A DNA stretch of 64,000 nucleotides from Candidatus Babelota bacterium. Lineage in GTDB: Bacteria > Babelota > Babeliae > Babelales > CAIQNR01. The position numbers and the translations under genes were made by a program. The stretch is from NCBI GenBank assembly GCA_965658655.1, contig CBFHTA010000002.1, forward strand, positions 160,001 to 224,000. Reading direction: 5' to 3'. Positions 3,906-56,955 of this stretch are shown here, in pieces (positions within the stretch are counted from its first letter, which is position 1; each line of letters begins with the position of its first letter). Below the pieces are notes generated by a model that had not been told where the DNA came from, did no database searches, and was given only the letters and a program-made list of their open reading frames with translations.

Positions 3906-6900
3906 TTAGAAATTCACCTGGCCACCCTTAACACGAACACGGCTTACATCTTTGCTAAGGTTTCTAAGATTTCTAATATTCCCTCGTTCTTTTCTCGTTC
4001 CCTCTGTATACCCCTGGTACAGATCATTTATTCTTTCTTTCTGCTGCCCAGTCAAGCGATTATAATAATCTTTTCCTCGAAGATCATCTAAGCTTCTGCC
4101 TCTTTCTTGATACTTTTTTGCTCTACCAAGTGTTTTGTTCCAATCATTCGTATTTTTTCTTTGTTTTCTTTTTTCCATGTTCAGGCGTTCTGGATCTGTG
4201 TCAAGATTGTATAGAGACTCTTGTTGTACCTCTTCGGGGCTCATACCACTAATCTGATTAAGCATATCTCTTTGAGGATCTGTAGTGCTCTTTCCTCCAC
4301 TACCAACACTGGTTTCTGACTGTCCTGCAAGAGACGAACTATCATAGTCAGGAACTGTATCATCTTGAGATTCAGGATCCTCACTCCATGACTTATTACC
4401 CGACAATTGATCTGATAATAAGTTACTACTTGCTTCAATACGCGCTTGCTTTGCTTTATTTAAATCTGCTTCAATACGCACTTGCTCTGCTGCGGATTGT
4501 TTTCCTTTATATCCCGATTGGTTTTCTTGCCATCTCTTAAAATTCTCGCCTTTTGCACCGCCATACCTATCTTCCATTCCAGGAGTCTGAACAAAACTAG
4601 AATCAGACTGTGCTGGCTGCGAATCACTTTCTGAAACCCAATCTGGCCTTAGATAATACTTACCTGCAAGATTAATACCATTCTGAGAAGCATACTCTCG
4701 TGTCTCAGTATAAAGTTCTTTTAATTTAGGATTATCTTTAAGTAATTGGCTAGCATCTGCAGTATTTATCTGTTCCATTAAACTGCCAATTTTAGCAACG
4801 GTGTATTCATCTTTTCCATCTTGCTTAATAGTTGCAAGACGACTTTCCAAAAAATCTAATGTTACATTTTTCAGTAGATCCTTAACCTGATCTATTTCAC
4901 CTTGTTCTAACTGACCACTATTACCTTCAAGGAAACTTTCTAATTCTCGTTTTAGTTTACTCAATGCTTTATTTTTTGTTTCAAAATCTCCATAATCTCC
5001 ATTTTTGATATCTTCAAATCGTTGGTTAAAGTCCTGTACTTTTTTTGTACGAGCCTGCTTTGATGCTTCTTGTTGACGCGCAAGAGCTTCTTCTTGTTCT
5101 CGTTGCTGCCTACGATACTCCTCTTGCGTTCTAGTAGCTTCTTCTTGTATTTTTTGCTTTCTAGTAGCTTCTTCTTGCTTTTTCCTAGCAGCTTCTTTTT
5201 CCCTTGATAATCGCTCTTGATTTAGTTTCTCCCTTGCTGTGCTTTCTTGTTTTATACGATTATCAAAATCATCTAACTCTTTTTGAGATACATTAAGGAT
5301 GTTTTGAGATTCATCTATCTGATCTTTAAACTGGTTGTTATTCTTATAAAAATTAAGTTGACCACTAGCACTGTCTACTTTTGCCTGTAAGCGCTTACGC
5401 TGCTCTTGAATGTCTCCCCATTGGTCAACTCGAAGTGTTCCATTCTTATATGCACTGCTATCCATAGCTCTTTGTATGTTTTCAAAACGTTCACCACTCA
5501 CCAAACCTCCTTCTAATTTATTTCTTAAAAGTGATAAATCGTATTTTTGTTGCTTGGTAGTATATTCTCCTTTACGAAGACGACTTTCTACCTGTTGCAA
5601 TCGCTCTTCAGTTGCGTCAGGACCACTTTTACCCAAGTCTTTTGAAACAGAAAGTGAATTAATCCAATTGTTAATTTGTTCTTGTAAGGATTCCCCATTT
5701 TTTTGTTTTTTTGTATACCAGTCAGGTGGATCTTGCTCATAAGTAGTTTGTATTTCTTGTAAACGAACCATTTCTTCTTTTGGATCTAAACCAGCAGTTT
5801 GATTTAAACCAGAACGAATATGCTTATTTAAGTTTTCTGAACGCTCAATTGGATTTGTAGATCTAGATTTTTTCATAAATTCATCTCTTAGACGATCTAA
5901 ATCTTCAAGGGAACTCTTTACCCTACTTTCCTGGGCGTCGCGTAGCGTATCAGCATTCTTTTGATTATCTTCAGAATCAGCAATCTCTTGCGCTTCACGT
6001 AAACTTTTCATTGAAGCATGATTCATCATGTTACTAGAAGGCTCTTCCACCAAAAGAGTTGCTGCTAAAGCATTCTCTTCTTTAACTCTCTGCTCTTCTC
6101 TGCGATCAGCCTCTCCATGAATAAGTGAGTGCCAATCAGAATCTTTTTTTGATGAATCAGTAGTAGCCCACTGATTAACACGATCCCTTAAATTTCCGTA
6201 AGCATCTGTGACGCCATTTTTCAATTCATCAATACCACTCGAAATCCCAGCAAGAGTGTCCGATTGCCCTTCGCGTGTTGAAACACGGCGTGCCAAGTTA
6301 CTCAATCTGTTCAACGTCTCTGCATCAGGAGTATAAACTCCTGCTTTTATACCATCAACACCCGCTTGAGCATATTGCCTTAACCCTTCAACTCCATCTT
6401 TAATTTGACGTTTCAAACCATCACTTGTGTGTTTTGTCCAATTATTTAATCTATCTTTTATCGTTTGCATATGATCATTAACAACTTGTGTTGTACTTCG
6501 CATATTAGTTCTACGTGATTCCAATTGTTTTATCACACTGCTTAACTTTTTAATCTTATCGTCATATTCCGGTTTAGTTAGATCAGTTTTTTTCAATTCA
6601 TATTCAAGATTTTCTGCTTCTGCCGATAATGCATATATCTCTTTGCGTGTTTTTCCTCCACCCCAATAATCATTAAATCGATCTGCCCAGGTTTTCAATA
6701 CCCCCTTTTTTTCATTATTATTAAAATTATCACTAAAGCCTACCTGATCACCGTCATACGTAACACTTTTACCTCTAAACACCTTGTTGTTTAATTCTCC
6801 AAGGTTGAGACCTCTTTCTGCTTCTTTTGTTGTCATTGGACTTTTATTATCATCACCTACACTAATGCTAGAGGTTGTACCAATATCTGTGCCAGTTATA

Positions 6901-7172
6901 GCTTTTGGTGCTTTTGCTGATGAAGCTTTACCCGAAAATTGCCACCACTTACGATGACTCTGAGACTGCTCCCCTGATTGGCTCGATAACTCGCCATAGT
7001 TTTCGCTAAGATCTCCTTTATTACCCTCTATTTCTGCTTCCTCTGAAGATTGTTCTGGGCCATCAGCTGAAGTAATAGCAGGATCTACAGGTGCCTTAAC
7101 TGGAGCATCCATAGAAAACACTGGTGAAATATTTATTAACAAAACGATTAATAATACTTTGAAACTCTTCAT
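3906..7172 (-). CDS. large exported coiled-coil/low-complexity protein (candidate effector)
   Basis: 1088-aa ORF; signal peptide MKSFKVLLIVLLINISPVFS; Q/E/K/R-rich heptads and QEEATR repeats. Confidence 0.85.
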   Translation of the reverse strand: MKSFKVLLIVLLINISPVFSMDAPVKAPVDPAITSADGPEQSSEEAEIEGNKGDLSENYGELSSQSGEQSQSHRKWWQFSGKASSAKAPKAITGTDIGTTSSISVGDDNKSPMTTKEAERGLNLGELNNKVFRGKSVTYDGDQVGFSDNFNNNEKKGVLKTWADRFNDYWGGGKTRKEIYALSAEAENLEYELKKTDLTKPEYDDKIKKLSSVIKQLESRRTNMRSTTQVVNDHMQTIKDRLNNWTKHTSDGLKRQIKDGVEGLRQYAQAGVDGIKAGVYTPDAETLNRLSNLARRVSTREGQSDTLAGISSGIDELKNGVTDAYGNLRDRVNQWATTDSSKKDSDWHSLIHGEADRREEQRVKEENALAATLLVEEPSSNMMNHASMKSLREAQEIADSEDNQKNADTLRDAQESRVKSSLEDLDRLRDEFMKKSRSTNPIERSENLNKHIRSGLNQTAGLDPKEEMVRLQEIQTTYEQDPPDWYTKKQKNGESLQEQINNWINSLSVSKDLGKSGPDATEERLQQVESRLRKGEYTTKQQKYDLSLLRNKLEGGLVSGERFENIQRAMDSSAYKNGTLRVDQWGDIQEQRKRLQAKVDSASGQLNFYKNNNQFKDQIDESQNILNVSQKELDDFDNRIKQESTAREKLNQERLSREKEAARKKQEEATRKQKIQEEATRTQEEYRRQQREQEEALARQQEASKQARTKKVQDFNQRFEDIKNGDYGDFETKNKALSKLKRELESFLEGNSGQLEQGEIDQVKDLLKNVTLDFLESRLATIKQDGKDEYTVAKIGSLMEQINTADASQLLKDNPKLKELYTETREYASQNGINLAGKYYLRPDWVSESDSQPAQSDSSFVQTPGMEDRYGGAKGENFKRWQENQSGYKGKQSAAEQVRIEADLNKAKQARIEASSNLLSDQLSGNKSWSEDPESQDDTVPDYDSSSLAGQSETSVGSGGKSTTDPQRDMLNQISGMSPEEVQQESLYNLDTDPERLNMEKRKQRKNTNDWNKTLGRAKKYQERGRSLDDLRGKDYYNRLTGQQKERINDLYQGYTEGTRKERGNIRNLRNLSKDVSRVRVKGGQVNF

Positions 7173-9840: not shown

Positions 9841-9917
9841 TGGTGCGCCTGGCAGGACTCGAACCTGCAACCAACGGATTCGAAGTCCGGTACTCTATCC
9901 AATTGAGCTACAGGCGC
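9841..9917 (-). tRNA. tRNA-Arg(TCG)
   Basis: Reverse complement gcgcctg...ccgga-ctTCGaa-tccgt...ggttcgagtcc...caggcgc-a-cca. Confidence 0.95.
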
Positions 9918-10102
9918 ATAATATATAGAATACTGCAAAATCTTAGACAGAGCAATCTGAAACTTACTTATCTTCCAGTCCTAAAGTCGACCACTCAACT
10001 AAACCAGGGTATTTGAGTCACCTTGACGAACAGCTTCATGTTTAACAGAGCGCCCTCTACTTCATTATCCTGAGCAGGATGAAAGTTGTTTTATACAAAA
10101 CC

Positions 10103-10813
10103 TTAATCGCGCCCAAGTAACCTATACAAAAACGCTTGATCATCGCCTGCTAAATAACCGAATGGTACTAAACCGCTCTCTCCCAAAGATTCTTTTAGAA
10201 TGCGGTCTCCCTCTTCATTCACAACAACATCATTGAATGCTGCTGCTCCCGGCTCTCTTAAATCTTTGTCGGCTGAAGAAGATGCTGCGGTACTCTTTCT
10301 ATCTTCAAAACCTTTTTTACAAGTCTTTATTTTTTTCAAAAAACATTTTGATGTATGAGTCTTAAACATATCTGGCCTCATATAACTACCTTTGCAGTAA
10401 GAACAAAAATAACTGGGACTAGCACCGTGCTTTTTACTTTTTTCCACATGCCTTTTAACCTCATCTGGTCGTGCAAAAGAATTATTACATTTAAGGCACC
10501 CAAACCTAATTTTTAATTTCTTTAAGGCCATAACTTCAGCATTATGTTTTCTTGAAAATTGTTTTTCTCCTACGCTCCATGTCCTTGTACGTGGAACGTA
10601 AGTTAACAGTTCTTGAGCTTTCTTCTTATAATTATCTTCTGTTAAGCCTTTATCGTAAGGCAGCAATAAATTATATCCATCCATTTCATAAGACATATAT
10701 TCAGAATGAGATTGCGTTTTTTTTCCCTCTAAAGGAATATTTGCAGCCGAAATGTTAGTAATAGATAAAATAATTCCACTAAAAATAATAAAAAAACTGT
10801 TTTTATTCTGCAT
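10103..10813 (-). CDS. exported C2H2/C2HC zinc-finger protein
   Basis: Signal peptide ending NISA; CLKC-x12-H-x6-H and CSYC-x12-H-x3-C; Lys-rich. Confidence 0.8.
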   Translation of the reverse strand: MQNKNSFFIIFSGIILSITNISAANIPLEGKKTQSHSEYMSYEMDGYNLLLPYDKGLTEDNYKKKAQELLTYVPRTRTWSVGEKQFSRKHNAEVMALKKLKIRFGCLKCNNSFARPDEVKRHVEKSKKHGASPSYFCSYCKGSYMRPDMFKTHTSKCFLKKIKTCKKGFEDRKSTAASSSADKDLREPGAAAFNDVVVNEEGDRILKESLGESGLVPFGYLAGDDQAFLYRLLGRD

Positions 10814-10912
10814 TAAAAATTGCTTTCTTTAGTTGTTGCTGATCTTCCACTGAATCATCCTTACCCTCTGCTTTATTATTCTGAGTAGGATGAAAGTTTT
10901 TATACGAAAACC

Positions 10913-11635
10913 TTAATCACGCTCCAGTGAACTATCCAAAAACGCTGGGTCATCGCCTTCTAAATAACCGAATGATACTAAACCGCTCTCTCCCAAAAAT
11001 TCTTTTAGAATGCAATTTGCCTTTTCATTCAAAAAAACATCATTGAATGCTGCTGCTCCCGGCTCTCTTGAATCTTTGTCAGCCGAAGAAGGTGCTGCAG
11101 CGCCCTCTCCATCTTCCATTTGTTTTTCTAAAGTATCTTTTTTTCCCCAACAGCACTCTTTTTTATGCCCCTGAAGAAGATCTTCTCTCCAAAACTTCTT
11201 GTTACAGTCACCACAACAATAGCTGGGTTTACAGCCATACTTCCGACTTCTTGAAACATGCGTTGCAAGCTTACTTACTTCTGAAAAAGACTCATCACAA
11301 AAAAGGCACCCAAACCTAACCCCTAAATCTCTTAATACCACTATTTTAGCTTGCTTTTTTTCTGTGTATTCTTTTTTTCCTGCTCGCCATTTTTTTGTAT
11401 GTGGATTTTGTGTTACTAGCTTGTTAGCTTTATCTTTATAATTATGGATTGTTAATCTTTTGCCGCAAGGCAGCAATACATTATACTTTGGCTTTTTATG
11501 AACCACATATCCCTCAACTCTCATTGTTTTTTGCTGTAGAGGAGGATGAATAAAAGGTATATTTGCAGCCGAAATGTTCATACTAGATAACATAATTCCA
11601 CTAACAATAATAAAAAAACTGTTTTTATTCTGCAT
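10913..11635 (-). CDS. exported zinc-finger protein, tandem paralog of 10103..10813
   Basis: Same signal peptide MQNKNSFFII.SGI.LS..NISA; CLFC-x12-H and CGDC-x12-H-x3-C; shared C-terminal ~55 aa. Confidence 0.8.
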   Translation of the reverse strand: MQNKNSFFIIVSGIMLSSMNISAANIPFIHPPLQQKTMRVEGYVVHKKPKYNVLLPCGKRLTIHNYKDKANKLVTQNPHTKKWRAGKKEYTEKKQAKIVVLRDLGVRFGCLFCDESFSEVSKLATHVSRSRKYGCKPSYCCGDCNKKFWREDLLQGHKKECCWGKKDTLEKQMEDGEGAAAPSSADKDSREPGAAAFNDVFLNEKANCILKEFLGESGLVSFGYLEGDDPAFLDSSLERD

Positions 11636-12386
11636 TAAGAATTATCTCCTCTAGCTGTTTTTTATCTTTCATTAAATTATCCTCCAGTTCATGGTTGAGT
11701 TGACGATGCAATAGTTGCAACTCTTTACACTGTTTGCTTGGTTTTCTCTGTAAAAATGTACTAATTATATTTTGATGTTCTATAGTTTCTACGTGATCTT
11801 GATAACTCTCTCTACTAGCATAAGAAAAAAAAGTTCCTAAAGACAAACTGCACTCAAGACATTCCCTCTTTTTTCCTTTTAGCTTTCTGCCTTTTTGGAT
11901 TAATGATATTAACTTTTTATGGGTGGAGACCGAAACTTTCTGTGCGGGACCATCTTTGCCTTTTTTCACTCCCAATCCGTTATTCATTACTGAATTAACA
12001 AGAGCACCTTTACATTCTTTTTCTATATGTCTATAACATTTCCCATACCTATCAAAAAGACACTTACAAGACTTACACTTCCAACTGGTCAAATGACTCT
12101 CTACATGAGCATTGATTCCGCTTTTTGCCATTCCTTTACCTTGTCTACCCAAAGATAAAGTGCAATCCGGCCAAAGACACTCGTATCTACCTTCACCATA
12201 AGGCTCTATCCACTTGTCTACGCCTTCGACTAATCCACATAATGGCTTTCTTGTAATGTTATCTATCTTGACCATTAAGTTTCTTCTATCCCTGTATGCG
12301 CGTGAATATTCACATTTCTCATTTTTATCTGCTGCCCCTACTGATGATTGATTAATACATAAAAATAAAAGAACTATCCGCTTCAT
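11625..12386 (-). CDS. exported multi-zinc-finger protein
   Basis: ATG 12386 after ggaagg; signal-like N-terminus; YECLWPDC...HVESH, CKSC-x12-H-x4-C, CLEC...HVETIEH; KGRKLKGKKR basic patch. Confidence 0.75.
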   Translation of the reverse strand: MKRIVLLFLCINQSSVGAADKNEKCEYSRAYRDRRNLMVKIDNITRKPLCGLVEGVDKWIEPYGEGRYECLWPDCTLSLGRQGKGMAKSGINAHVESHLTSWKCKSCKCLFDRYGKCYRHIEKECKGALVNSVMNNGLGVKKGKDGPAQKVSVSTHKKLISLIQKGRKLKGKKRECLECSLSLGTFFSYASRESYQDHVETIEHQNIISTFLQRKPSKQCKELQLLHRQLNHELEDNLMKDKKQLEEIILNAE

Positions 12387-12662
12387 ATGCGCCTTCCACA
12401 AATAAAATTACATTATTTTTGTGCATAGACTTTCCATGCGTTATATAGATATAAAACATTTTATTTTATACGCAACACTAAAGGATAATTCAATACTCTA
12501 AGCAAGTCGCTTCTTATAGCACAAACAAAAATCATGGTGCTCATAAGCAACGTAATGAATCATATTGCCCTCACTTTAGACATTTAGCCACAACCTGAAT
12601 GTAAATACTAGTGGATGTCACCTTGATTCTTTAGTAATTCTAATTCTCCTCCCTATTGACTA

Positions 12663-13229
12663 TTATCTTTTATGTGCCATTTCTCGAGAAGTAGCAAATC
12701 CACTATAAGAAGTATAAAAAGGACCTTTCAAAGATTGCTGCCACCCGTCAACCTCATGATGTTGAGAAGCTATATGTGAAGCCATTTTTTCATAATTACT
12801 ACGGGTCTCTTTGCACACAGCACACTGAGTTTTTCCATATTTTAACATCTCAACATTGCATCTCAAAGAGGTTCTTAACCTATCTTGTTCTGTTATTGTT
12901 AATAACTTTAAAGATGCACCATCTTGTTTATAAGCATACTCAAAAATATCATCCGATACGCGTGCACCAATTAATGCAACTTTCTTCGTTTTACCACGCG
13001 CTTTCTTAGATACACTTTTCTGAGCTCCTGAATCATTACTAGATTTGTTTTTATTTAAACCGGATTCTCTTTTTAATCTTGCTTCTTCTTTCTTTTTTAC
13101 ATCAAGCATTTCAGCCATTATAGAAACTACGCTTTTTTCTCTATCAGTAAGAACAGCTTGAGTACCTCCAGACATAACAGATACTGTCACCAAGCTTAAA
13201 CCCATAAAAAATACTAATTTCTTACTCAT
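12663..13229 (-). CDS. exported single C2H2 zinc-finger protein
   Basis: Signal peptide MSKKLVFFMGLSLVTVSVMS; basic KKARGKTKK; CAVC-x12-H-x4-H. Confidence 0.75.
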   Translation of the reverse strand: MSKKLVFFMGLSLVTVSVMSGGTQAVLTDREKSVVSIMAEMLDVKKKEEARLKRESGLNKNKSSNDSGAQKSVSKKARGKTKKVALIGARVSDDIFEYAYKQDGASLKLLTITEQDRLRTSLRCNVEMLKYGKTQCAVCKETRSNYEKMASHIASQHHEVDGWQQSLKGPFYTSYSGFATSREMAHKR

Positions 13230-14162: not shown

Positions 14163-16133
14163 TTACTCGTCAAGGTCATCTGGGTCATACGGCTCATAAT
14201 TTAAATCATCTTGCATACCATGTTTTGGACCTTCAACCTCTGTCTGCTCGGGTGTAAAAATATTATTTCTAGCTTCATTTTCAGCTTCTAACTTCTTCTG
14301 CGCTGCCTCCATATCTTTTGCCCGGTTGCTTTTGATTCTTGCTTCATCAGGTCTCTTTAAAAATGATTGAAATTCTTTTTCTTCTTCCTCTTCATTCAGG
14401 ACTCTATCACCATCATCATCATCGCTTCTACCATTACCTTCCATCTCACTCAAAGCACGATCCATCTCGTTAGGATCGAAATCATTAGGATCGACATCAT
14501 TATCATCGGTACTACTTGAACCTTGTTCCCCTAAATCTAAAATATTACCATCGGTGCTACTTTCATTTCTATCGAAATTACCAAGATTTAAAGTTTGAGA
14601 ACCATCATCGTCATCGTCATCATCGTCGTCATCCCAGTCATCCTCTTCGCCATCATCGTCGTCATCCCAGTCATCCTCTTCGCCATCATCATCGTCATCA
14701 TTATTGCTGCTATTAGACACATTTTCAGGTGCCTGATTGCGATCACGAAGAGCATTTTTCAGGCCTTCAGCAAGAATATCACTATAGCTATCAACAGTTG
14801 CAGCGTCTGAATAAGGTGTTAACAACTCTTGTGCTTTTGTTTCAAGTTTATCCACTTTCTTACTTAACGACTTTCGAGAACGATTATCTTCAGGTAACTT
14901 TTGAATTTTTTCTTTAAGACCATCAACTCTTAATCGTAGCATTTCATCTTTTATGTCTCGTACCTTTATACGAAGTTGTGCATCATTCGGACGAGCCTTT
15001 TGTTTAGCCTCTACATCTGTAAGTTCTATTTGCTTTACACTAATAGATTCCGCTGTTTCTGGTGATATATTGTATATGGTGGCATTACGCTGAGCACCTT
15101 CAACCATCTCTTCTTGTTTTCTCAATGCACTATCAATATCTGAATTAAGATTCTCAACAGAAGTAAAAAGCTTTTCTCTTTTTTTATCAACCGCATCAGC
15201 GGCATCTCTACCAACTTTCCCTAATGTTTTGCCACTCTTTCTTTCTTCAATTTCACGATCAAGGCGAGCAATACCCCCTTTTTCAAGAGCACCTTGACTT
15301 ACCTTGCCATACTCTCTTAAACGACCTTCAATTGTATCCAAATCTGCATCTGTTCTTGCTCTGTCTATTTCCCTTGAAAAACTATCAACATTATTGGCAT
15401 CTCTCCCACTCCGGGTCCACGTACTTTCTGTTAATTTCTTACCATCTGTCTCTTCTCGAAGTACTTGGTTTGCACGATCTTCAAAATTTTGTAGTTGTTT
15501 CTCAACAAGAGCTTTTTGTTCTTCTGTAGGATTGTCTTCTTGTACCCATTGATCTATTCTCTTATTAATCTCATTAACTTTTTCTCTAATTACACCTAAT
15601 GATGACTCTGAAGTATCTCTCACTACACCAGTCCATGAAGAATCTATAAAATTAGACGATTGTTCTATTTCTTTAACAAAATCTTCAGCTTTTACAGAGT
15701 TATCCACATTTTTAGCTTCTTCAATTCTTCCCCTGTCACTTTCAAATTCTAGTCCACGCTCAGAACTTATAGCATCCGTAGCAACCTGTTCATTTGCACT
15801 TTCTTGCTCACTACCTTCCTCTAAACTCGAAGTTCCACCTTGCGCAACGTCCTGTAAACTTTCTAAAGATGTTGAACTTCCTGACGGGAAATCCACCATT
15901 CCTTCATCTGAAGATGTACGTGAAGGATTTTCATACAAACTTTCTGTATCATCATCATCATGATCAGGATCTACATTTTCGGGATCATCTTGCTCGCTAT
16001 CAGAATCACCAGTCTGTCTAGTTATATCAGTAGATACATCATGGTCTGGGGCAACGTCAATACCATCCATCGACCATAGAGCAATTGAAGTACTTAATAA
16101 TAAAAATAAAAGTAAACGAATATTTTTTTTCAC
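14163..16133 (-). CDS. exported acidic coiled-coil protein with WASP-like central/acidic motif
   Basis: 656 aa; signal peptide; DILAEGLKNALRDRNQA followed by (DDDDDGEEDDW)x2. Confidence 0.85.
   Translation of the reverse strand: MKKNIRLLLFLLLSTSIALWSMDGIDVAPDHDVSTDITRQTGDSDSEQDDPENVDPDHDDDDTESLYENPSRTSSDEGMVDFPSGSSTSLESLQDVAQGGTSSLEEGSEQESANEQVATDAISSERGLEFESDRGRIEEAKNVDNSVKAEDFVKEIEQSSNFIDSSWTGVVRDTSESSLGVIREKVNEINKRIDQWVQEDNPTEEQKALVEKQLQNFEDRANQVLREETDGKKLTESTWTRSGRDANNVDSFSREIDRARTDADLDTIEGRLREYGKVSQGALEKGGIARLDREIEERKSGKTLGKVGRDAADAVDKKREKLFTSVENLNSDIDSALRKQEEMVEGAQRNATIYNISPETAESISVKQIELTDVEAKQKARPNDAQLRIKVRDIKDEMLRLRVDGLKEKIQKLPEDNRSRKSLSKKVDKLETKAQELLTPYSDAATVDSYSDILAEGLKNALRDRNQAPENVSNSSNNDDDDDGEEDDWDDDDDGEEDDWDDDDDDDDDDGSQTLNLGNFDRNESSTDGNILDLGEQGSSSTDDNDVDPNDFDPNEMDRALSEMEGNGRSDDDDGDRVLNEEEEEKEFQSFLKRPDEARIKSNRAKDMEAAQKKLEAENEARNNIFTPEQTEVEGPKHGMQDDLNYEPYDPDDLDE
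14618..14683. repeat. 33-bp perfect tandem repeat x2 encoding GEEDDWDDDDD
   Basis: catcatcgtcgtcatcccagtcatcctcttcgc at 14618-14650 and 14651-14683. Confidence 0.9.
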
Positions 16134-16142
16134 AACAAATCC

Positions 16143-16994
16143 CTACTTGCGTAAAACATACCTCTTAAACCACTCCTGCGCTAATTCTTCTGCCTTCTTT
16201 TCATTCTTTTTATATAAAGCTTGACCAGTTTTTTTTGCATTCTTAATAAACTCATCTTTAAATCTTTCTTTAATTCTCTTAGCTTCGATACTATTTGCCC
16301 AACTTTCTTTACCAGCCTGATCTATAATACCTTCTTGAGCAGCTTCCCAATAAGGGGTATTTGCAGCGCCACTTACAATAGCACGTATACCAGATGCATC
16401 GCGTTTATCTTCAATATATTGCGACAGTGCTTTTACATCATCTGGATGAAATTGAGACAAAGGTAAAAGCGCCTCTACCATTGCTTTTGGATCTTTGTTA
16501 AATTCATCATCTATAAATCTTTGCCATTCTCCTCTATCTTTTGCACTTAATAATCCAACAGTGTCGTCTCCAACTTGCGTTGCATTATTTAACATTGCTT
16601 TATCTGCTTTTAGTTGTTCTTTTGCACTATCTTTACCGAGCGCACGGTTCACCATAGAAGAAGCTTTACTGGTATAACTTGTGACAAGATGATCTCCAAG
16701 CAGAACCGCCCCATCAACAACTGTATTTACGACTGGAACATCTAGGTCATTTTCATAGGGACTAGGTGAATCAACATTTAGTTTTTTTCTTGGAGGCGGA
16801 GGTGGACCATACATTTCTGGTTCACTATACTCCACTGGTCTTGGTTCTGGACCATATACAGGAAGAACCGGGCGAAACTCTTGACTACGTTCATTTGAAT
16901 TGTACACTTTATCGTATGAACCTGATTGTAGTAAAAGAGGAACCATACTCACAAAAGCAAACAGGATCAAACCTATACATACCTTTTTATTCAT
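16143..16994 (-). CDS. exported proline-rich hypothetical protein
   Basis: Signal/anchor N-terminus; YGPEPRP and YGPPPPPRK motifs. Confidence 0.8.
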   Translation of the reverse strand: MNKKVCIGLILFAFVSMVPLLLQSGSYDKVYNSNERSQEFRPVLPVYGPEPRPVEYSEPEMYGPPPPPRKKLNVDSPSPYENDLDVPVVNTVVDGAVLLGDHLVTSYTSKASSMVNRALGKDSAKEQLKADKAMLNNATQVGDDTVGLLSAKDRGEWQRFIDDEFNKDPKAMVEALLPLSQFHPDDVKALSQYIEDKRDASGIRAIVSGAANTPYWEAAQEGIIDQAGKESWANSIEAKRIKERFKDEFIKNAKKTGQALYKKNEKKAEELAQEWFKRYVLRK

Positions 16995-17047
16995 AATTCC
17001 TCTCCTCTTTTAATACTACTTAACCTTTTATGTATTCAATCTCACTT

Positions 17048-18550
17048 TTATTGATGTCTATTATAATACTCCATTAATGTTTGCTTGCTATAAACTCCAG
17101 TATCAGGAATGCCACTCCATCCTTGTCCATTTTTTGGATCTGAAGAAGGATCTCTTTTAAGTTTATTTGCTATAACAGCATAATGATTTAACCATTCCCT
17201 ATCCTTCAAAGACAATGCTCCAAATTCCTTTCCCACACGCGTAGGAAGAGGTAATCCTGGAAGCGATGAAGCTTTCCTTATTGGTACTAAGAGATCTGTA
17301 TCTGATTCAGAAGCAACTGGAGTTGTTTGGTATCCAGTAGTGGAAGTCGCTGACAATTGCATACCTGGTTGCAAAAAAGCTGGAGTTTTTTTAGAAGCCG
17401 GTGGTGGTGGTGCCATTCCAGTTCTACCAGTCGGAAGGTCATCAAATACTCCTAGCGCTGCTTGTCCTGATTGCGAACTATAACCTGTAGATATGCTCGG
17501 TTGATACAATGATCCAGGTCCTGGTTGTTCTGGTTGTGGACCATACTCTGCAGGTCTTCTTCTTAACGCTCCTGAATTTTGTCCTCCTGGAGCTGCTTGT
17601 CCTGATTGCGTTGACAATTGAGACTTTACACCAAACCATTTTAATGCTCTATTAATCCCTTCTCTAGCAGCCATATCTGCACCTGATTTAAGATCCCCTT
17701 TAATATCTTTATAAATCTCTCTACCTAAACCTCCAGTTTCTTTACCAATTTGAGTATTTGATGCCCATTGTGCACCTTGTTGAAAACGTTCTCTAGCAGC
17801 ACCCCAGTTACTTGATGTGTTTGAATTTTCAGTAACAGCATTCAGCACTTGCTTCTGCTCTTCCAGTGAGAAATCAAAGAAACCTTTAACCCGTGCTAAT
17901 TGTGCACCTGTATAACCTTTCTCTTTGACATAGTATTGTATCCATTGCTGCACAAGATTTTCTTCTTGTGGATCAACTGAAGTTGAGCTCGCAGTAGAAC
18001 TTACTGCAGAATTAGTAGCAGTTATTTGAGATGTATTTGCACCACTATTTCTCTGTTGTAACGATGCGTAAAAGGAAAGAGTTGTTTGATCTGATAAACT
18101 TAAACTTTGATAATTTGGTTCTGCTTTTAACTGGTCAACTGATATGTTATTTTGAGCAATAAACTGCTTCCATTGCTCCAATTCAGCTGGACTTAAATTT
18201 CCATCATCACTCTCATAACCAGAGCTCTGATCTAATAGATTTTGTTGATCAGCACTTGTTTGGAATCCAGATTGAGAAGCACTTTGATAATTAAGCAAAT
18301 CATTCTGTTGTTCAGGAGTAAAGCTATCAAAACCATCTTCTTGTGCTACGTCATAACCTTTATTATTATCTATCCAATCTTTCCAAGGCTGTGTTGCTGG
18401 ATCACTAGCAACCTGTGGCGCTTCTAGCGATGCTCCTTGATATGTACTAGCACCTTGTAAAAATTCGGGTCCAGAACCAGCTTGCCCATCGGTAACCCCA
18501 ACAAGGGTCAAGATTGCTAACACCAAACATGTCATATTTAACTTTTTCAT
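17048..18550 (-). CDS. exported Q/S/P-rich protein with three short Trp-containing repeats
   Basis: ATG 18550 after ggagga RBS; signal peptide ending GQA; WKDWID/WKQFIA/WIQYYV modules; APPPPA. Confidence 0.8.
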   Translation of the reverse strand: MKKLNMTCLVLAILTLVGVTDGQAGSGPEFLQGASTYQGASLEAPQVASDPATQPWKDWIDNNKGYDVAQEDGFDSFTPEQQNDLLNYQSASQSGFQTSADQQNLLDQSSGYESDDGNLSPAELEQWKQFIAQNNISVDQLKAEPNYQSLSLSDQTTLSFYASLQQRNSGANTSQITATNSAVSSTASSTSVDPQEENLVQQWIQYYVKEKGYTGAQLARVKGFFDFSLEEQKQVLNAVTENSNTSSNWGAARERFQQGAQWASNTQIGKETGGLGREIYKDIKGDLKSGADMAAREGINRALKWFGVKSQLSTQSGQAAPGGQNSGALRRRPAEYGPQPEQPGPGSLYQPSISTGYSSQSGQAALGVFDDLPTGRTGMAPPPPASKKTPAFLQPGMQLSATSTTGYQTTPVASESDTDLLVPIRKASSLPGLPLPTRVGKEFGALSLKDREWLNHYAVIANKLKRDPSSDPKNGQGWSGIPDTGVYSKQTLMEYYNRHQ

Positions 18551-18653
18551 AGGTCTTCCTCCATTATTAGACCAAAACATTATTACTATCTGAAATATTA
18601 ACATGCCAGATAAGTAAAAAACAAGAAAAATATTAAAAAATCTTATTGTAAGC

Positions 18654-19397
18654 TTATTTAGAAGCTATTTTCCGAACAAAATAAGCTAGAAATTCTTTGT
18701 TTCCAGTAGTACCAACAATAGGAGAGTCAATGAGCCCTAAAAGATCGAAACCACGTTCAATAATGCCATTTGTTACTCTCTGAGTAACCTCTTTATGAAC
18801 ATCTTCTTCTTTAATAACACCTTTTTTGCCTACTTGATCTCTATGTGCTTCGAATTGTGGTTTAATCAAAACAATAAGCTTCCCGTCTGGTTTAAGGAGT
18901 GCAGTAACTGTATCCATTACTTTAAGTAATGAGATAAAAGAAAGGTCGAGAGTAATAAGATCAACAAGCTCCCCTACTTCTTTAAGATGCCTGAAGTTAG
19001 TTCGCTCCATTGTCTGAACGCGTGGATTTGTACGTACTTTCTCGTGAACCTGACCATAACCAACATCTACCCCATAAATACGCTTAACCCCACGTTGTAA
19101 TAAACAGTCCGAAAACCCTCCGGTAGAAAGACCAGCATCTACCACTACTAAGTCGGTAACATCAACGTTAAAATGATCAAGCGCACCTTCAAGTTTAAAA
19201 CCAGCGCGCCCCACATATTTAGGTTCTGTCTGATCAAGAATGATGATGTCGTCTGGCTTTACTAATGTACCAGACTTGCTCTCAACCCGATCGTTTACCT
19301 TAACTTTACCCTGCATAATAAAGCCCTGAACCTGATTACGTGTAAGATGTGGATACATTTCTTGTATCCGTTTATCTAAACGTTCCTTATGAATCAC
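18654..19397 (-). CDS. tlyA: TlyA family RNA 2'-O-methyltransferase
   Basis: S4 domain (KERLD), YVGRAGFKL, DAGLSTGGFSDCLLQRG, DLSFISL, LIKPQFEA, GNKEFL. Confidence 0.95.
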   Translation of the reverse strand: MIHKERLDKRIQEMYPHLTRNQVQGFIMQGKVKVNDRVESKSGTLVKPDDIIILDQTEPKYVGRAGFKLEGALDHFNVDVTDLVVVDAGLSTGGFSDCLLQRGVKRIYGVDVGYGQVHEKVRTNPRVQTMERTNFRHLKEVGELVDLITLDLSFISLLKVMDTVTALLKPDGKLIVLIKPQFEAHRDQVGKKGVIKEEDVHKEVTQRVTNGIIERGFDLLGLIDSPIVGTTGNKEFLAYFVRKIASK

Positions 19398-49136: not shown

Positions 49137-49575
49137 CTAACCTTCTCTATACAAACGAATTTTTTCGCTTTCAACTTCAAGAATAATTTTATTGGGTCTT
49201 TCTTTGTGCAATCGAAACCATGCAGAGATCATGTTCAAAAACTCATTCACCGTTGTTTTGTATGCATTTGGATCTGGATATTCATCAAAATCTGGATCAA
49301 CAAACCATCCAATTAAAACAAAATTACCTTCTTTTTGTTGTTTAAATACTACCTTGTACTTATCAATACTCTTTCTTGCTTCTAATATCTTTTTAACAAC
49401 TTCTTGTCTTGTCCAATCGGAAGGAAAGAATGTAGACCATTTTGGTTCTTTTCCAAACATTCCCCATTTAAACTTATATACACCATTTTTATCTTGAACC
49501 ATTTCTAAAATTTCTATGGGTTGGCCCAAAAACTTTTTATTTTTAAAATTTGTCTTTTTCAAATCATGATGCCAA
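49137..49575 (-). pseudogene. orphan EndoU toxin-tip fragment fused to an immunity-gene C-terminal fragment
   Basis: WHHDLKK...STFFPSDWTRQEVVKKILEARK homologous to ~50270-50516; tail resembles the C-terminus of 49718..50158; no proper 5' end. Confidence 0.75.
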
Positions 49576-49717: not shown

Positions 49718-50158
49718 CTAATCAAGAACATCTTCTCCAGCAAGATTTTTTGTAGGTGCATCTTCTGCATACACACGAATATTATTATCATCTGATAATT
49801 CAAGAGTAATACGATTCTTATCTTCTCCATAAGCCCATATCCATTGCTTTATTCCATTCAAAAGTTTTTCTTTTGGAATAACAACAGAAGGAGGTTCTTC
49901 GGGTGCATATTCATACCCTATAAGAATATTGTTCCTTTCAAATTCACAGTCAAACATATTCGTTGCAAACGGAGTATTTTTTTTAATTCTCTCAAGCATT
50001 CGAGCTGTTTCTTCAGGATTCCCCACTATACCATCTAAAAACAACTGCATTAAAGTTCCAGCTTTTGTATCTGACCCCTGCCATATGTGATAACAATATT
50101 TTCCTTTTGTTTCACTAGAAACAGGATAAAAAGTCTTTGTACATACCGATTTCTTCAT
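49718..50158 (-). CDS. putative cognate immunity protein
   Basis: 146-aa ORF without signal peptide, 9 bp downstream of the toxin stop; partial homolog within the orphan module. Confidence 0.7.
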   Translation of the reverse strand: MKKSVCTKTFYPVSSETKGKYCYHIWQGSDTKAGTLMQLFLDGIVGNPEETARMLERIKKNTPFATNMFDCEFERNNILIGYEYAPEEPPSVVIPKEKLLNGIKQWIWAYGEDKNRITLELSDDNNIRVYAEDAPTKNLAGEDVLD

Positions 50159-50167
50159 ATTTACCTT

Positions 50168-51733
50168 TTAAAATTCAGGATAAATTGTAATTATATTTTT
50201 TTTATGTTTATCCACTATAAAACTAATTTTAATACCCTCTTTAGTAAAACCAGATCTAATAAATCGCCCACTGTCTTGTTTCACAAAGGGTGCTTTATAT
50301 TTTTCAATATTCTTTCTTGCTTCTAATATCTTTTTAACAACTTCTTGGCGAGTCCAATCAGAAGGGAAAAATGTTGAAGGCTTTGGTCTCTTACCAAACA
50401 TGCTCCACTCAAATTGATAAATTCCGTTCTTACCTTGAACTACATTTAAAATTTCTATAGGATGCCCATGAAACTTTTTATTCTTAAAAATTGTCTTTTT
50501 TAAATCATGATGCCAACCTCCAATAGATCTTTTAACTTCTCCAAACTTAGTGGTGTATGTTTTTATATCTGGCTGAAACAAATGCCTTGGGCGAATGTCT
50601 ATTAACTCTCCTTTGAACTGCATATGCAACAATGCAAGATCTTCTTCTAGTGCAAGCCACTTTGTTGCACTACCTTTTAATGCTGGTACAAGGTTACCAT
50701 GCATTTTAGTAACAGGGTCTTTGGCCTCCATTGCCATTAAATTAAGATATTCACCCATTGTTGGCACAATAATATTAGGTGCACCTTCTACGGCAAAAGA
50801 ATATTCAGATACTTTTTCTGCTGCATCAAGCCATTTGTTTGCATTGTTATATGTATATTTAGAAAATTGCCCGATCGCTCCCATTGCTCTTTCTAACAGC
50901 ACCACTTCAACACCAAATGCTGTTGCGCATCGAATGAAATCATACCGCGGAATAGATCTTACAACCTCTATAACTTCTTCTATCTGCTCTTTATGAGTTA
51001 AAAAACGATTATAAAGTTTTTCGGGATCCATCATTGAATAATAAGAGATAGCACCGCACTCTTTTAGTACATACGCCATTGCACGGGCTGTTTTAACAAT
51101 ACCATGAGCCATTTGCTTTGCTGTTCTTGTAGGGTGCAAGCAAGCATCAACAGTATTAAAAACGCCATCTTTTGCACCATAGGCAACTGCTTTTCCGCAT
51201 TCAAGCAACCCCCAACACACATCGAGCAAGCGACTGGTAAAAAGCACTCCACCCTGCTTATTTGCTTGATGTGCAAGTTCCCCAAGCGAGCCGATTGTAT
51301 CTTGATACTCTTTGTCTACCACAAGATCTGCCGCTTGTGCCTGAATATCTAGAAGCTCTTGATGCAATACATGCTGAAACTCGTTACCTTTGAATTGCTG
51401 ATACTCTTGCCCATTACCATACGTGTTTATAAAGCTTTTTGTTTTTTGAGACAGTGCATAGTTTTTTTTAACTACTTTTGCAGGATCAAAATTCTTAAAC
51501 GCACGCAAACGCCTTTCTTGATGCGCATCTTCAAAGAATTGCCACTCTTCTAGAACATGAACTAAAAGATATTTTTCTTGATACTCAGCACGCCTTTTAG
51601 CACATGCTCGTTCTTCTTTTCTCTGAATCTCCTGTTGCCTTTGTCTTCTTTGCGCTCTTCTTGTTCTTGCTTTTGCAGCTCTCTTTTTTTTTGAGCTGCG
51701 AGAAAACGCAACTGTTGATCTATCTGATCCCAC
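50168..51733 (-). CDS. polymorphic toxin, C-terminal bacterial EndoU nuclease domain (downstream frame of a split gene)
   Basis: RHLF...GGWHHD...KPSTFFPSDW...G..I...ITIYP pattern of bacterial EndoU toxins. Confidence 0.8.
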   Translation of the reverse strand: MGSDRSTVAFSRSSKKKRAAKARTRRAQRRQRQQEIQRKEERACAKRRAEYQEKYLLVHVLEEWQFFEDAHQERRLRAFKNFDPAKVVKKNYALSQKTKSFINTYGNGQEYQQFKGNEFQHVLHQELLDIQAQAADLVVDKEYQDTIGSLGELAHQANKQGGVLFTSRLLDVCWGLLECGKAVAYGAKDGVFNTVDACLHPTRTAKQMAHGIVKTARAMAYVLKECGAISYYSMMDPEKLYNRFLTHKEQIEEVIEVVRSIPRYDFIRCATAFGVEVVLLERAMGAIGQFSKYTYNNANKWLDAAEKVSEYSFAVEGAPNIIVPTMGEYLNLMAMEAKDPVTKMHGNLVPALKGSATKWLALEEDLALLHMQFKGELIDIRPRHLFQPDIKTYTTKFGEVKRSIGGWHHDLKKTIFKNKKFHGHPIEILNVVQGKNGIYQFEWSMFGKRPKPSTFFPSDWTRQEVVKKILEARKNIEKYKAPFVKQDSGRFIRSGFTKEGIKISFIVDKHKKNIITIYPEF

Positions 51734-52414: not shown

Positions 52415-52526
52415 CGCAGACTCCTCTATAATTAAATCTGCGATATACTACTATGTAAAAAATGAAAAATCAAACCGCCAATACTGTAGTCAAAAGGTGC
52501 AATCCGAGCATTTATTTTTTAATAAC

Positions 52527-52607
52527 CTAGCCCCGCAAAGCTTTACGTAAATATGGTGCTGTTTGGCTTACTTTAGAACGGGCAACTACTTTTGGTTCAC
52601 CCTCTGC
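52527..52607 (-). repeat. diverged copy of uvrA 3' end (last 26 codons plus stop)
   Basis: 72/81 identical to 54391-54471; encodes AEGEPKVVARSKVSQTAPYLRKALRG*. Confidence 0.95.
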
Positions 52608-54282: not shown

Positions 54283-54390
54283 TTTAAACCTCCTTTTTAA
54301 ACTATACTTTTTAAGCATACTCTATATGAGAAGGCATAATAAAGAGTTTTACATCCTAAAGTCATTTGTAAGCTTAAATCCTTAAAACCC

Positions 54391-56955
54391 TTAAGCTCGT
54401 AATGCTTTACGTAAATATGGTGCTGTTTGACTTACTTTTGAACGGGCAACTACTTTTGGTTCACCTTCTGCAACCACAGTTCCACCCTCTGCTCCACCTT
54501 CTGGTCCCATATCAATAATATAATCTGCTGTTTTCAAAACATCTAAATTATGTTCAATAACAAGAACAGAATTACCTTTGGCAACCAGTCGATTTAATAC
54601 TTTGAGCAATTTCTCAATATCGCTTGAGTGCAAACCTGTTGTTGGCTCATCAAGAACATATAATGTTCGAGTCCCTCGTTTTGCTAACTCATTAACGAGT
54701 TTAATACGTTGAGCCTCTCCACCAGAAAGCGTTGTTGAAGATTGAGCTAACTTTAGATAATCAAGACCAACGTCACACAACAACTGCAAACGTTTAATGA
54801 TATTCTTATGTGCAGCAAAAAATTTCATTGCTTCTACGGCTGTCATGTCGAGAACGTCGGCAATGTTCTTTCTTTTATACGTAATTTGCAATGTCTCTTT
54901 ATTGTAGCGCCGCCCCTTACAGGTTTTACAGATCATGGTAACATCGGCCAAAAAGTGCATTTCAACAGTTATGGTTCCATTACCCGAACAATCAAAACAA
55001 CGCCCAACCGGTCTGTTGAAACTGAATCGCCCTGCTTTATAACCACGCACTTGGCTCTCAGGCAACGCTGCAAATAAATTTCTAATTTCGTCAAAAATAC
55101 CTAGATAGGTTGCGGGGTTAGACCGAGAGGATCGACCGATTGGCTTTTGATCAATAACAACTAAAGCATTAACTTGATCACCTCCAACTAAATCTTTTGT
55201 TGGAACTACTCGACGACGATTACCAGTTAGCTCTTGTTCAACAGCCGGAACTAATTCTTCTAACACCAATGAACTTTTACCCGAACCAGAAACTCCTGAT
55301 ATGCCACACAGTACCCCTAACGGAAAACGCACAGTAATATCTTTTAAGTTGTTTTTTTTCGCATGCTTTAAAATTAAATATGCATACGGTGTTCTTCTAA
55401 ACTCAGGTAACTCAATTTTTTTCTTACCACTTAAATAAGCACCAGTCAGAGAATTAGTATCTTTTGTAATTTGATTAGGAGTTCCAATAGCCGTAATGGT
55501 TCCACCATGCACACCAGCCTCTGGACCCATATCAATAAGATAGTCGGCCGCTTTCATAGTATCTTCGTCATGCTCAACAACTACAACTGTGTTGCCTTGA
55601 TCACGTAAACTTTTAAGTGTTTTAATTAAACGGTCGTTGTCTCGTTGATGCAAACCAATACTTGGTTCATCAAGAATATAAAGTACACCACTAAGCGCAG
55701 AACCAATTTGTGTAGCCAATCGAATACGTTGCCCTTCCCCACCAGAAAGTGTTCGTGCCGTTCTATTAAGTGTTAAGTAAGGCAACCCAACATCATCTAA
55801 GAACTGTAATCTTCGGGTAATCTCATTGAGTAACGCCTTAGCTATTTTTTTTGATGTTGCATCTATTTTTATCTTCTTAAACCATTCAAGCGCTTCTTTA
55901 ATAGGCATTTCAGAAATTTGATAAATATTTTTTTTATCAACCTCTACCGCCAAAGCAAATTTGTTTAATCGTTGACCTTTACATTCTTCACACCCTAAGC
56001 GTGTTGCATATTTTTTAAAAAAATCTGGATATTTGGTTTTCCAATAATCTTTATCCCCTTTATCCCACGGCCATTTATTGGTTATCCCTAATCCAGAACA
56101 ACTTTTACATGCACCTACCGGAGAATTAAAAGAAAAAAAACGCGGCTCAAGTTCAGGAAACGCATTACTACATTTAAGACACATGCGCTGGGAAGCATAC
56201 AACTGCTCTTTTTTGCCCGAAACTACCTTAACCAGACCGTCTGAAAGCTGCTCTGCTTTTTCTACCGCCTCTTGAATTCTAGGGCGCTCTTCCTCTTCAA
56301 CCGTTAACGCATCAACTAATACATCAATAGTATGTTTATACGTTTTGCCTAATTTCAGAGCATCTATCTCTTCTACGCTTGAAAATTTGTATTGTTTACC
56401 ATCTATCTCAAATCTATAAAACCCCTGCTGAAAATGATGTTTTAAATCATTTTTAAACTCACCCTTTTGCTCACGAACAATCGGTGCACTAATAACTACC
56501 GACCTATCCTTAAAGAGCGCAAGAATATGATGAGCCATACTTTCTGGAGATTGCGCTCCTACCTTAATAGCACAATCAGGACAATGGGCAACCCCAATAC
56601 GAGCAAAAAGCACCCGTAAGTAATCGTAAATTTCTGTAATAGTTCCAACAGTAGATCGAGGATTTGCCCCAACTGTTTTTTGCTCAATCGCAATGGCTGG
56701 ACACAAACCTTCTATTTGATCAACGTCTGGTTTACGTGCAATACCCAAAAATTGTCGGGCGTAGGCAGACAGCGATTCGGTATACCGACGTTTACCTTCG
56801 GTATATAAAATATCTAAAGCCAAAGAACTTTTCCCCGATCCAGATGGACCAGTAATAACAGTAAACGCTTCTTTTGGAATCTCTACAGAAACGTTTTTAA
56901 GGTTATGTTCACGCGCTCCAGTAACCTTAATCCACGAACGATGTTTCTTCGCCAT
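54391..56955 (-). CDS. uvrA: excinuclease ABC subunit A
   Basis: GAREHNLKN, two GxSGSGKSS Walker A motifs, two LSGGE signatures, zinc-binding CxxC pairs. Confidence 0.98.
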   Translation of the reverse strand: MAKKHRSWIKVTGAREHNLKNVSVEIPKEAFTVITGPSGSGKSSLALDILYTEGKRRYTESLSAYARQFLGIARKPDVDQIEGLCPAIAIEQKTVGANPRSTVGTITEIYDYLRVLFARIGVAHCPDCAIKVGAQSPESMAHHILALFKDRSVVISAPIVREQKGEFKNDLKHHFQQGFYRFEIDGKQYKFSSVEEIDALKLGKTYKHTIDVLVDALTVEEEERPRIQEAVEKAEQLSDGLVKVVSGKKEQLYASQRMCLKCSNAFPELEPRFFSFNSPVGACKSCSGLGITNKWPWDKGDKDYWKTKYPDFFKKYATRLGCEECKGQRLNKFALAVEVDKKNIYQISEMPIKEALEWFKKIKIDATSKKIAKALLNEITRRLQFLDDVGLPYLTLNRTARTLSGGEGQRIRLATQIGSALSGVLYILDEPSIGLHQRDNDRLIKTLKSLRDQGNTVVVVEHDEDTMKAADYLIDMGPEAGVHGGTITAIGTPNQITKDTNSLTGAYLSGKKKIELPEFRRTPYAYLILKHAKKNNLKDITVRFPLGVLCGISGVSGSGKSSLVLEELVPAVEQELTGNRRRVVPTKDLVGGDQVNALVVIDQKPIGRSSRSNPATYLGIFDEIRNLFAALPESQVRGYKAGRFSFNRPVGRCFDCSGNGTITVEMHFLADVTMICKTCKGRRYNKETLQITYKRKNIADVLDMTAVEAMKFFAAHKNIIKRLQLLCDVGLDYLKLAQSSTTLSGGEAQRIKLVNELAKRGTRTLYVLDEPTTGLHSSDIEKLLKVLNRLVAKGNSVLVIEHNLDVLKTADYIIDMGPEGGAEGGTVVAEGEPKVVARSKVSQTAPYLRKALRA

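Follow-up and report, generated by a model that had tools for sequence, protein, structure and literature searches.

A tandem pair of export-tagged zinc-finger genes in a Babeliales genome, probably old and homogenised at its ends

Introduction

Dependentiae known so far are described as intracellular parasites of protists, and the same account reports signal peptides on 44% of Chromulinavorax proteins (PMC6561590). Effector genes of Parachlamydiaceae (PMC4209131) and ankyrin effector genes of Dependentiae (PMC6561590, PMC4776705) form tandem, lineage-specific arrays coding for exported eukaryote-like proteins and undergoing rapid gain and loss. These sources treat F-box, BTB and ankyrin proteins; the term "C2H2" is absent from their main texts. 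In p44/msp2 of Anaplasma phagocytophilum, conserved 5' and 3' flanks surround a variable centre (PMC1366493). Here we describe genes A and B, two neighbouring paralogous zinc-finger genes with signal peptides and likewise with conserved ends around a diverged middle. They are located in a 64,000-nucleotide stretch of contig CBFHTA010000002.1 (the window, to which all coordinates without a prefix refer), which is a part of a 929-kb Babeliales genome, 95% complete.

Supplement file 2 of PMC4776705 holds 9 automatic C2H2 labels in 8 rows, covering 3 of 7 genomes, and the word "zinc" is absent from the main text of that paper. It is also absent from the accessible text of PMC12172432, and the accessible part of PMC12491435 reports zinc-finger enrichment in Kistimonas. 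Apart from automatic labels, export-tagged C2H2 proteins are not discussed as a class in the literature searched, most subscription journals lying outside the search. On balance, we favour the view that A and B are intact copies of a likely old tandem duplication, with ends homogenised later and with products which, judging by their sequences, are predicted to bind host DNA.

Results

Gene A (10103..10813, minus strand) codes for a 236 aa protein with a signal peptide, an N-terminal block containing a putative zinc-less relic finger, two zinc fingers and an acidic-aromatic tail. Gene B (10913..11635, minus strand) is its 240 aa paralog, 52% identical to A. The start-to-start spacing of 810-822 nt agrees with the tandem paralogous units recognised in the initial annotation. 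The duplicated unit extends some 50 nt past the gene in both directions, which takes in the 3' end of the neighbouring gene C, and there is no similarity beyond.

Divergence between the two units is not uniform. The best two-breakpoint model assigns 64% identity to 444 middle columns (10734-10286 in A) and 87% to 361 end columns; its log-likelihood gain of 29 compares with a maximum of 10 in 200 permutations, so the contrast between conserved ends and a diverged middle, noticed initially by inspection, is confirmed. The middle block occupies 10286..10734 (minus strand) in A and 11096..11556 (minus strand) in B, the latter limits being carried over from A by unit offsets. At the 5' end, the signal-peptide block (codons 1-26) has 92% nucleotide identity. 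This block, probably homogenised, contains the Sec-type signal peptide of A (10745..10813, minus strand); that of B lies at 11567..11635 (minus strand), and both were recognised by eye and by a home-made rule. An identical 33-nt tract covers 11606-11638 in B and 10784-10816 in A. At the other end, the tail of A (codons 177-236, 10103..10285, minus strand) forms the presumed homogenised 3' block, found in no other gene than A and B in the genomes searched. The tail of B (10913..11095, minus strand) has an identical 34-nt tract in common with it, 11036-11069 in B and 10226-10259 in A. As protein, the last 60 codons show 73% identity and as DNA 88%, so "nearly identical" was too strong a description of the last 55 or so residues. 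The same description of the non-coding flanks suits only the downstream one (10053..10102), which is identical to 10864-10912 at 44 of 48 positions. The upstream flank of A (10817..10863) matches 11639-11685 at 31 of 47 positions, and in B this segment is coding, being the 3' end of gene C.

The divergence is not specific to the fingers. Protein identity is 38% over codons 27-100, ahead of the fingers, and 37% over codons 101-160, so the whole middle of 150 codons varies and not a hypervariable finger region. The four recognition helices quoted initially are all present, but their residues are not especially variable: base-contact residues are changed at 6 of 8 positions compared with 88 of 142 others (p=0.71). 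In finger 1 all four contact residues differ, while in finger 2 Arg-1 and Asp2 are retained in both A and B.

Silent sites show the same contrast between ends and middle. Pairwise codon maximum likelihood, applied to 86 end codons and 150 middle codons (27-176), gave a silent-site divergence (dS) of 0.17 and omega (dN/dS) of 0.66 for the ends, with dS of 0.71 and omega of 0.87 for the middle. The model of equal dS is rejected (p=0.0009); neither equal omega (p=0.61) nor omega=1 (p=0.61) is. Counting methods are concordant, with silent differences per site (pS) of 0.14 in the ends versus 0.38 in the middle. The dN/dS comparison proposed in the initial annotation therefore finds that central dS is not as low as that of the ends. 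As silent and replacement sites shift together, selection at the protein level is not the cause of the contrast between ends and middle.

This bears on the proposal that the middle diverged under diversifying selection for DNA-binding specificity and that the ends were held by function. Several observations agree with it. Overall omega is near 1 despite clear constraint, which implies many fast sites, and the site model M2a fits 35% of sites at omega 6.5. In finger 1, where all four contacts differ, it is B that has left the Arg/Asp/x/Arg state, which A has in common with the protein P0009 (described below), and contact positions of a TGEKP-linked gene array of the genome (also below) evolve faster than other non-core positions. 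Protein selection, however, could not produce a fourfold dS contrast. M2a is not significantly better than M1a (p=0.12), and the tests on A and B, resting on two sequences, have little power; contacts are not enriched for changes, the pre-finger segment and the fingers are equally diverged, and the relative-rate test between A and B is not significant (14 vs 9, p=0.40). We consider this explanation unlikely as the source of the pattern. Diversifying selection may act on top of homogenisation; it does not produce the end/middle difference.

The non-coding DNA directly 5' of A is a relic of the last codons of gene C (GKDDSVEDQQQLKKAIFNAE vs ELEDNLMKDKKQLEEIILNAE) and provides a measure of age. 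Its 31 matches out of 47 fit dS of 0.53 (p=0.35) and 0.71 (p=0.07), not 0.17 (p=0.001), and differ from the 44 of 48 in the downstream flank (p=0.002). The relic thus serves as an internal clock matching the age of the middle, which makes the middle the baseline and the ends excessively alike. Within the relic, position 10831 is G in the probable source run and A in the window.

Locus DNA is present in two runs from a single study of marine plankton, and either the one or the other may be the source; only short pieces of the locus occur in a soil run (X3), which is uninformative on habitat, and no RNA runs are found among the listed holders of locus DNA. In the probable source run both A and B are present at a depth of 9.8-12.7, approximately single-copy, while the depth is 26 (doubled) in the common 33-nt tract and 15 in the 34-nt tract. 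Since both middles are covered at single-copy depth by contigs of this run, the tandem is not an assembly artefact.

A young duplication with one middle replaced by a diverged allele of another strain or from a cassette store, as in msp2/p44, could also yield a mosaic with sharp limits, and the 33- and 34-nt identical tracts do flank the middle. We regard this as improbable, since the upstream relic matches the middle in age and searches of the genome (95% complete) and of several databases gave no further arms or cassettes. In particular, tblastn and blastn searches of the genome for more genes with these arms match A and B only, and no reverse transcriptase was found, so the cassette exchange suggested initially lacks a reserve of cassettes. 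A single low-depth contig of the second sample (X2) joins the B middle to the B-A junction via the 33-nt tract; its depth of 3 and the coverage gaps at both true exits are those expected of a short-word mis-join, and this probable mis-join was rejected as a recombinant allele and is not used as support. No third middle is seen among the contigs of the two runs, both of low depth. A diversity-generating retroelement was also rejected: the genome gave no PF00078 match, and the middle keeps adenines well (0.71 vs 0.47-0.56 for C and G).

Taken together, the silent sites and the upstream relic make an old tandem duplication with later homogenisation of the ends the probable history. Recombination, named in the initial annotation, belongs to the right class of causes, with its polarity reversed: it is the ends that would have been homogenised, not the middle exchanged. 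The first step, duplication of a unit made of the gene and its short flanks with the 3' end of gene C, is evident from the alignment. The middle would then record how long ago the duplication took place, and the blocks at the two ends (signal peptide; tail plus flank) were probably copied later by gene conversion or unequal crossover; RecA is encoded in the genome. The conserved ends are an ordinary pattern, namely partial homogenisation of tandem paralogs.

Both genes are maintained. Neutral simulation to the observed divergence (substitutions only, with A as a proxy for the ancestor) gives 10.6 stop codons on average, and in 0 of 5000 neutral runs did the two frames stay open or the seven zinc ligands common to A and B all survive. 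Frames and ligands are preserved far beyond this expectation; selection has held them, with most other positions changing at a near-neutral rate.

Finger 1 of A (10427..10504, minus strand) has the ligand pattern C-X2-C-X12-H-X6-H and the helix RPDEVKR; finger 2 (10343..10411, minus strand) is C-X2-C-X12-H-X3-C with the helix RPDMFKT. In B, finger 1 (11237..11314, minus strand) has the helix EVSKLAT with Tyr in place of the second His, at the fourth ligand position, and finger 2 (11153..11221, minus strand) has the helix REDLLQG with all ligands intact. The pattern C-X2-4-C-X12-H-X3-5-H/C is thus matched by finger 2 of both proteins, as C2HC, while finger 1 departs from it by the H-X6-H spacing in A and by the Tyr in B. 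No TGEKP-type linker is found between the fingers of A (HGASPSYF) or B (YGCKPSYC). The middle is strongly basic, with a net charge of +20 in A and +12 in B.

The best PDB matches of the A finger pair are EGR1/Zif268 fingers 1-2 and WT1 (1p47, 1aay, 4r2e; E 1.6e-5). Contact residues of A finger 1 are Arg-1, Asp2, Glu3 and Arg6, as in EGR1/Zif268 finger 1, and those of finger 2 are Arg-1, Asp2, Met3 and Thr6. The Arg-1/Asp2/Glu3/Arg6 set reads GCG in Zif268. EGR-type contacts are therefore present in both fingers of A (R-D-E-R and R-D-M-T), and B has only R-D of finger 2, its finger 1 contacts being Glu, Ser, Lys and Thr. A structural model of A residues 40-165, built with A, B and P0009, has a mean predicted local distance difference test score (pLDDT) of 81, with helices at both recognition helices (pLDDT 60-82). 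Foldseek with this model places WT1 first, weakly (E 0.011), and its top WT1/Zif268 matches all have E>0.01. The model of B is poor (mean pLDDT 39), and past residue 85 it is of no use.

Sequence searches yielded 80 representatives at E<=0.001 among 1.84 billion, nearly all via the fingers; the closest finger pair by sequence belongs to a hypothetical protein of Mycena floridula (51% over 51 aa). P0009, a 439 aa protein with a signal-like start from an ENA contig, shares the N-terminal block as well (score 57, 0 of 2000 shuffles as high). At a place where neither A nor B has a working finger, P0009 carries a third one, intact. Residues 47-99 of A (10517..10675, minus strand) begin with the block common to P0009 (YxLxLP..GL..DNY); after it comes a predicted unit of beta-beta-alpha type which lacks Cys/His ligands and aligns to the third P0009 finger. 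The model of A shows the unit at this place, and we read it as a probable zinc-less relic finger of a three-finger ancestor. As Arg/Asp helices like those of A occur in P0009 and in two genes of a relative (G008), finger 1 of B looks derived, although the overall relative-rate test (above) is not significant. In that relative (L007:148-2568), the two export-tagged genes carry the helices RNDELTRH, RSDHLTTH and RSDHLQAH, which we take to be KLF/EGR-like, and one of them has a basic stretch and an acidic tail.

No homologs of B other than A and B themselves were found among 5.8 billion proteins (219 candidates), searches for orthologs in 60 relatives and 260 phylum genomes returned matches to generic fingers only, and a metagenome scan with the A/B alignment gave 88 pattern matches, 0 of them confirmed. 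A donor of the fingers was sought with a tree of 60 finger pairs, but no more than 7 of its 57 branches were starred, the bootstrap did not settle and A failed to group with B, so no donor is claimed.

With a net charge of -6 and -8 in 60 aa and with 13 W/F/Y/L, the tails are acidic and aromatic; they pass the loose version of an acidic/aromatic activation-domain rule, failing the strict one. They show no extra constraint, and the tail alone as query gave 0 matches in 260 other phylum genomes. The idea of a constrained activation or translocation module thus finds no backing beyond a loose compositional rule, and identity of the tail DNA is no evidence of tail function.

As an alternative, A and B may not bind host DNA: they could be exported proteins that are dispensable and drifting, or their targets could be RNA or protein, either periplasmic or in the cytoplasm of the host. 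This would agree with an omega not different from 1, the relic finger and the further ligand lost in B, the apparent lack of orthologs and of a classical nuclear localisation signal (NLS), and the absence of GGAG before A, but we consider it very unlikely given the frames and seven ligands kept far beyond neutral expectation, the full EGR1-type Arg/Asp/Glu/Arg helix of A and the strongly basic middle.

Several points weigh against our preferred interpretation of A and B as a homogenised pair of predicted host-DNA binders. With two sequences only, neither the direction nor the date of conversion can be fixed. Much the same numbers would result if a diverged allele had been imported or if the middle mutated faster, and the contigs of the two plankton runs demonstrate no polymorphic or recombinant allele. 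The C2H2 fingers of both proteins score below the Pfam cut-off, and two fingers specify only about 6 bp. The Sec signal reaches the periplasm only, and a signal-like start by the home-made rule is present in 320 of 853 genes of the genome (37.5%). No classical NLS was found in A or B by our own rule. The ribosome-binding motif GGAG precedes B and is missing before A.

Profiles of silent-site divergence were obtained for 18 neighbouring paralog pairs of the genome. In 11 of them silent sites are near-saturated throughout. A zinc-finger pair (C1:478541/479337) has the same end-low profile as A and B, with pS by sixths of 0.09, 0.37, 0.45, 0.52, 0.46 and 0.18, and equal dS is rejected for it (likelihood ratio test statistic 23.5). 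Among the other profiled pairs, one is alike at the 5' end only, one is uniform, two are array members and an ankyrin-like pair is mildly end-low. The closest tlyA relative (L027) has a tandem pair sharing an internal block (93-100%) between ends of 53-69%, which indicates that the copied patch need not be the arms. Judging from these profiles, the recombination that leaves ends alike is apparently a habit of the lineage. The C1 pair itself (C1:478541-479954) is a second tandem pair, made of export-tagged five-finger genes with KRKK tails.

The genome also has an array of export-tagged Krueppel-type genes, at least 6 of them complete and two more truncated, which is interrupted by the end of a contig (C1:520256-521004 and C2:1-3897). 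Its genes have 4-7 fingers, TGE[KR]P linkers, near-identical junctions and signal peptides, and in 5 of 6 a KKRK motif; 25 distinct four-residue helix codes occur among 29 fingers. An NLS motif by our own rule is present in 7 of 8 multi-finger array genes of the genome. Contact positions of the array evolve faster than other non-core positions (omega of 1.49-1.76 vs 0.86-1.11, p=0.002-0.01); the excess of omega above 1 is borderline in the codon model (p=0.12 and 0.036), and recombination between fingers biases such tests. On their sequence features, the TGEKP-array genes are the best candidates for host-DNA-binding effectors.

Similar genes occur in relatives. PF00096 is found in 21 of 61 genomes, including 13 of 15 from the same family and 1 of 14 controls. 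A signal-like start is present in 40 of 43 multi-finger open reading frames (ORFs) of the relatives' loci versus 320 of 853 genes of the source genome, although the former count depends on a home-made signal rule and on loci chosen by finger score, and kin are not independent. The strict acidic rule is passed by 10 of 38 versus 7 of 170 exported-type proteins of the source genome, and by 1 of 14 of its own finger proteins. One more relative locus (L096:2234-8085) has two tandem export-tagged genes with, by eye, four C2H2-like fingers, ankyrin-like repeats and an F-box-like motif.

A and B lie head to tail as the last of a row of export-tagged finger-motif genes (D, C, B, A) beside tRNA-Arg(TCG) (9841..9917, minus strand). 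Gene D (12663..13229, minus strand), the first gene of this four-gene cluster, is export-tagged and basic with one C2H2-like motif. Gene C (11625..12401, minus strand) is export-tagged and contains three Cys/His motifs that resemble fingers. It overlaps the start of B with its stop and, apart from its duplicated 3' end, is not alignable to A or B. The tRNA is a fixed landmark at the downstream edge of a variable interval whose other reference point is a tlyA-like gene (18654-19397), named by sequence reading; relatives of this gene mostly carry the labels Babeliales, Dependentiae or TM6. A hand count found this tRNA downstream of tlyA in 52 of 80 relative loci, at distances from about 25 nt to 9 kb, and no finger-motif ORF between tlyA and tRNA-Arg(TCG) in those loci. 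Since the interval is variable and lacks finger ORFs in relatives, the cluster looks like a lineage-specific filling of a plastic site. In L027 (L027:11442-17805) the same interval is filled by different export-tagged orphans. An att site was rejected, as no 12-mer of the tRNA is repeated within 5-25 kb, and a promoter/terminator scan did no better than chance, with 15 found against 13.1 expected.

Large orphan genes for export-tagged proteins, acidic or coiled-coil, lie on both sides of the cluster (3906-7172 and 14163-18604, minus strand), one of them with an Asp-rich 9-12 nt repeat (14596-14703). Further along the window, a polymorphic-toxin-like cassette includes an EndoU nuclease gene (50168-51733, minus strand; export-independent-looking), a putative immunity gene (49718-50158) and an orphan EndoU tip (49137-49562) with 78% DNA identity. 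A 101-nt repeat (52507-52607 and 54371-54471, 82%) is a copy of the 3' end of a uvrA-like gene beyond an ankyrin-like gene, which makes it another duplication that carried the end of a neighbouring gene. A dihydroorotate-dehydrogenase-like gene (59691-60701, plus strand) has, by eye, a signal-peptide-like start.

Discussion

We propose that the products of A and B may be exported via Sec and released into a eukaryotic host; two secretins are encoded in the genome. There, A could read a GC-rich site as EGR1 fingers 1-2 do (GCG and the adjoining triplet), and the specificity of B, in which finger 1 is rewritten and a ligand lost, would be altered or weaker. For the class of export-tagged C2H2 proteins as a whole, the chances that they act on host DNA seem to us about even, and for A and B in particular they are lower. 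If host promoters were bound, this would offer direct access to the way in which Dependentiae control their hosts, and the helix codes would predict target sites for an in vitro test with no need for culturing. This family of intracellular parasites commonly carries export-tagged C2H2 arrays whose helices vary, and the class merits follow-up.

The likeness of A and B to p44/msp2 concerns conserved flanks around a variable centre. In contrast to p44, with 113 loci comprising silent reserve copies and an expression site (PMC1366493), two full-length genes without reserve copies are found here.

The helices of A resemble those of EGR1/Zif268 and WT1 (RPDEVKR vs RSDELTR, RPDMFKT vs RSDHLTT). Unlike these proteins, A is bacterial and has a signal peptide, H-X6-H and C2HC spacing, no TGEKP linker and two metal-binding fingers.

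Ros/MucR proteins likewise have a bacterial Cys/His zinc finger. They are cytoplasmic single-finger regulators, while A and B have signal peptides and eukaryote-type tandem fingers, and no match of A or B to the Ros/MucR family was found at E<=1.

Among bacterial effectors, reading of host DNA through a modular code is known chiefly from TAL effectors. TAL effectors and nucleomodulins are exported bacterial proteins combining a variable, modular DNA-reading part with an acidic segment. The proteins described here differ from TAL effectors in having C2H2 fingers instead of TAL repeats and a Sec-type signal instead of a type III one. We speculate, as a tentative and rather doubtful extension, that Babeliales may possess a phylum-wide, fast-evolving arsenal of exported mimics of eukaryote-type C2H2 transcription factors, a counterpart of TAL effectors, in which recombination at common signal-peptide and tail blocks would maintain the turnover of tandem arrays and the recognition helices would diversify, A being an EGR1-like binder of GC boxes and B its retargeted sister.

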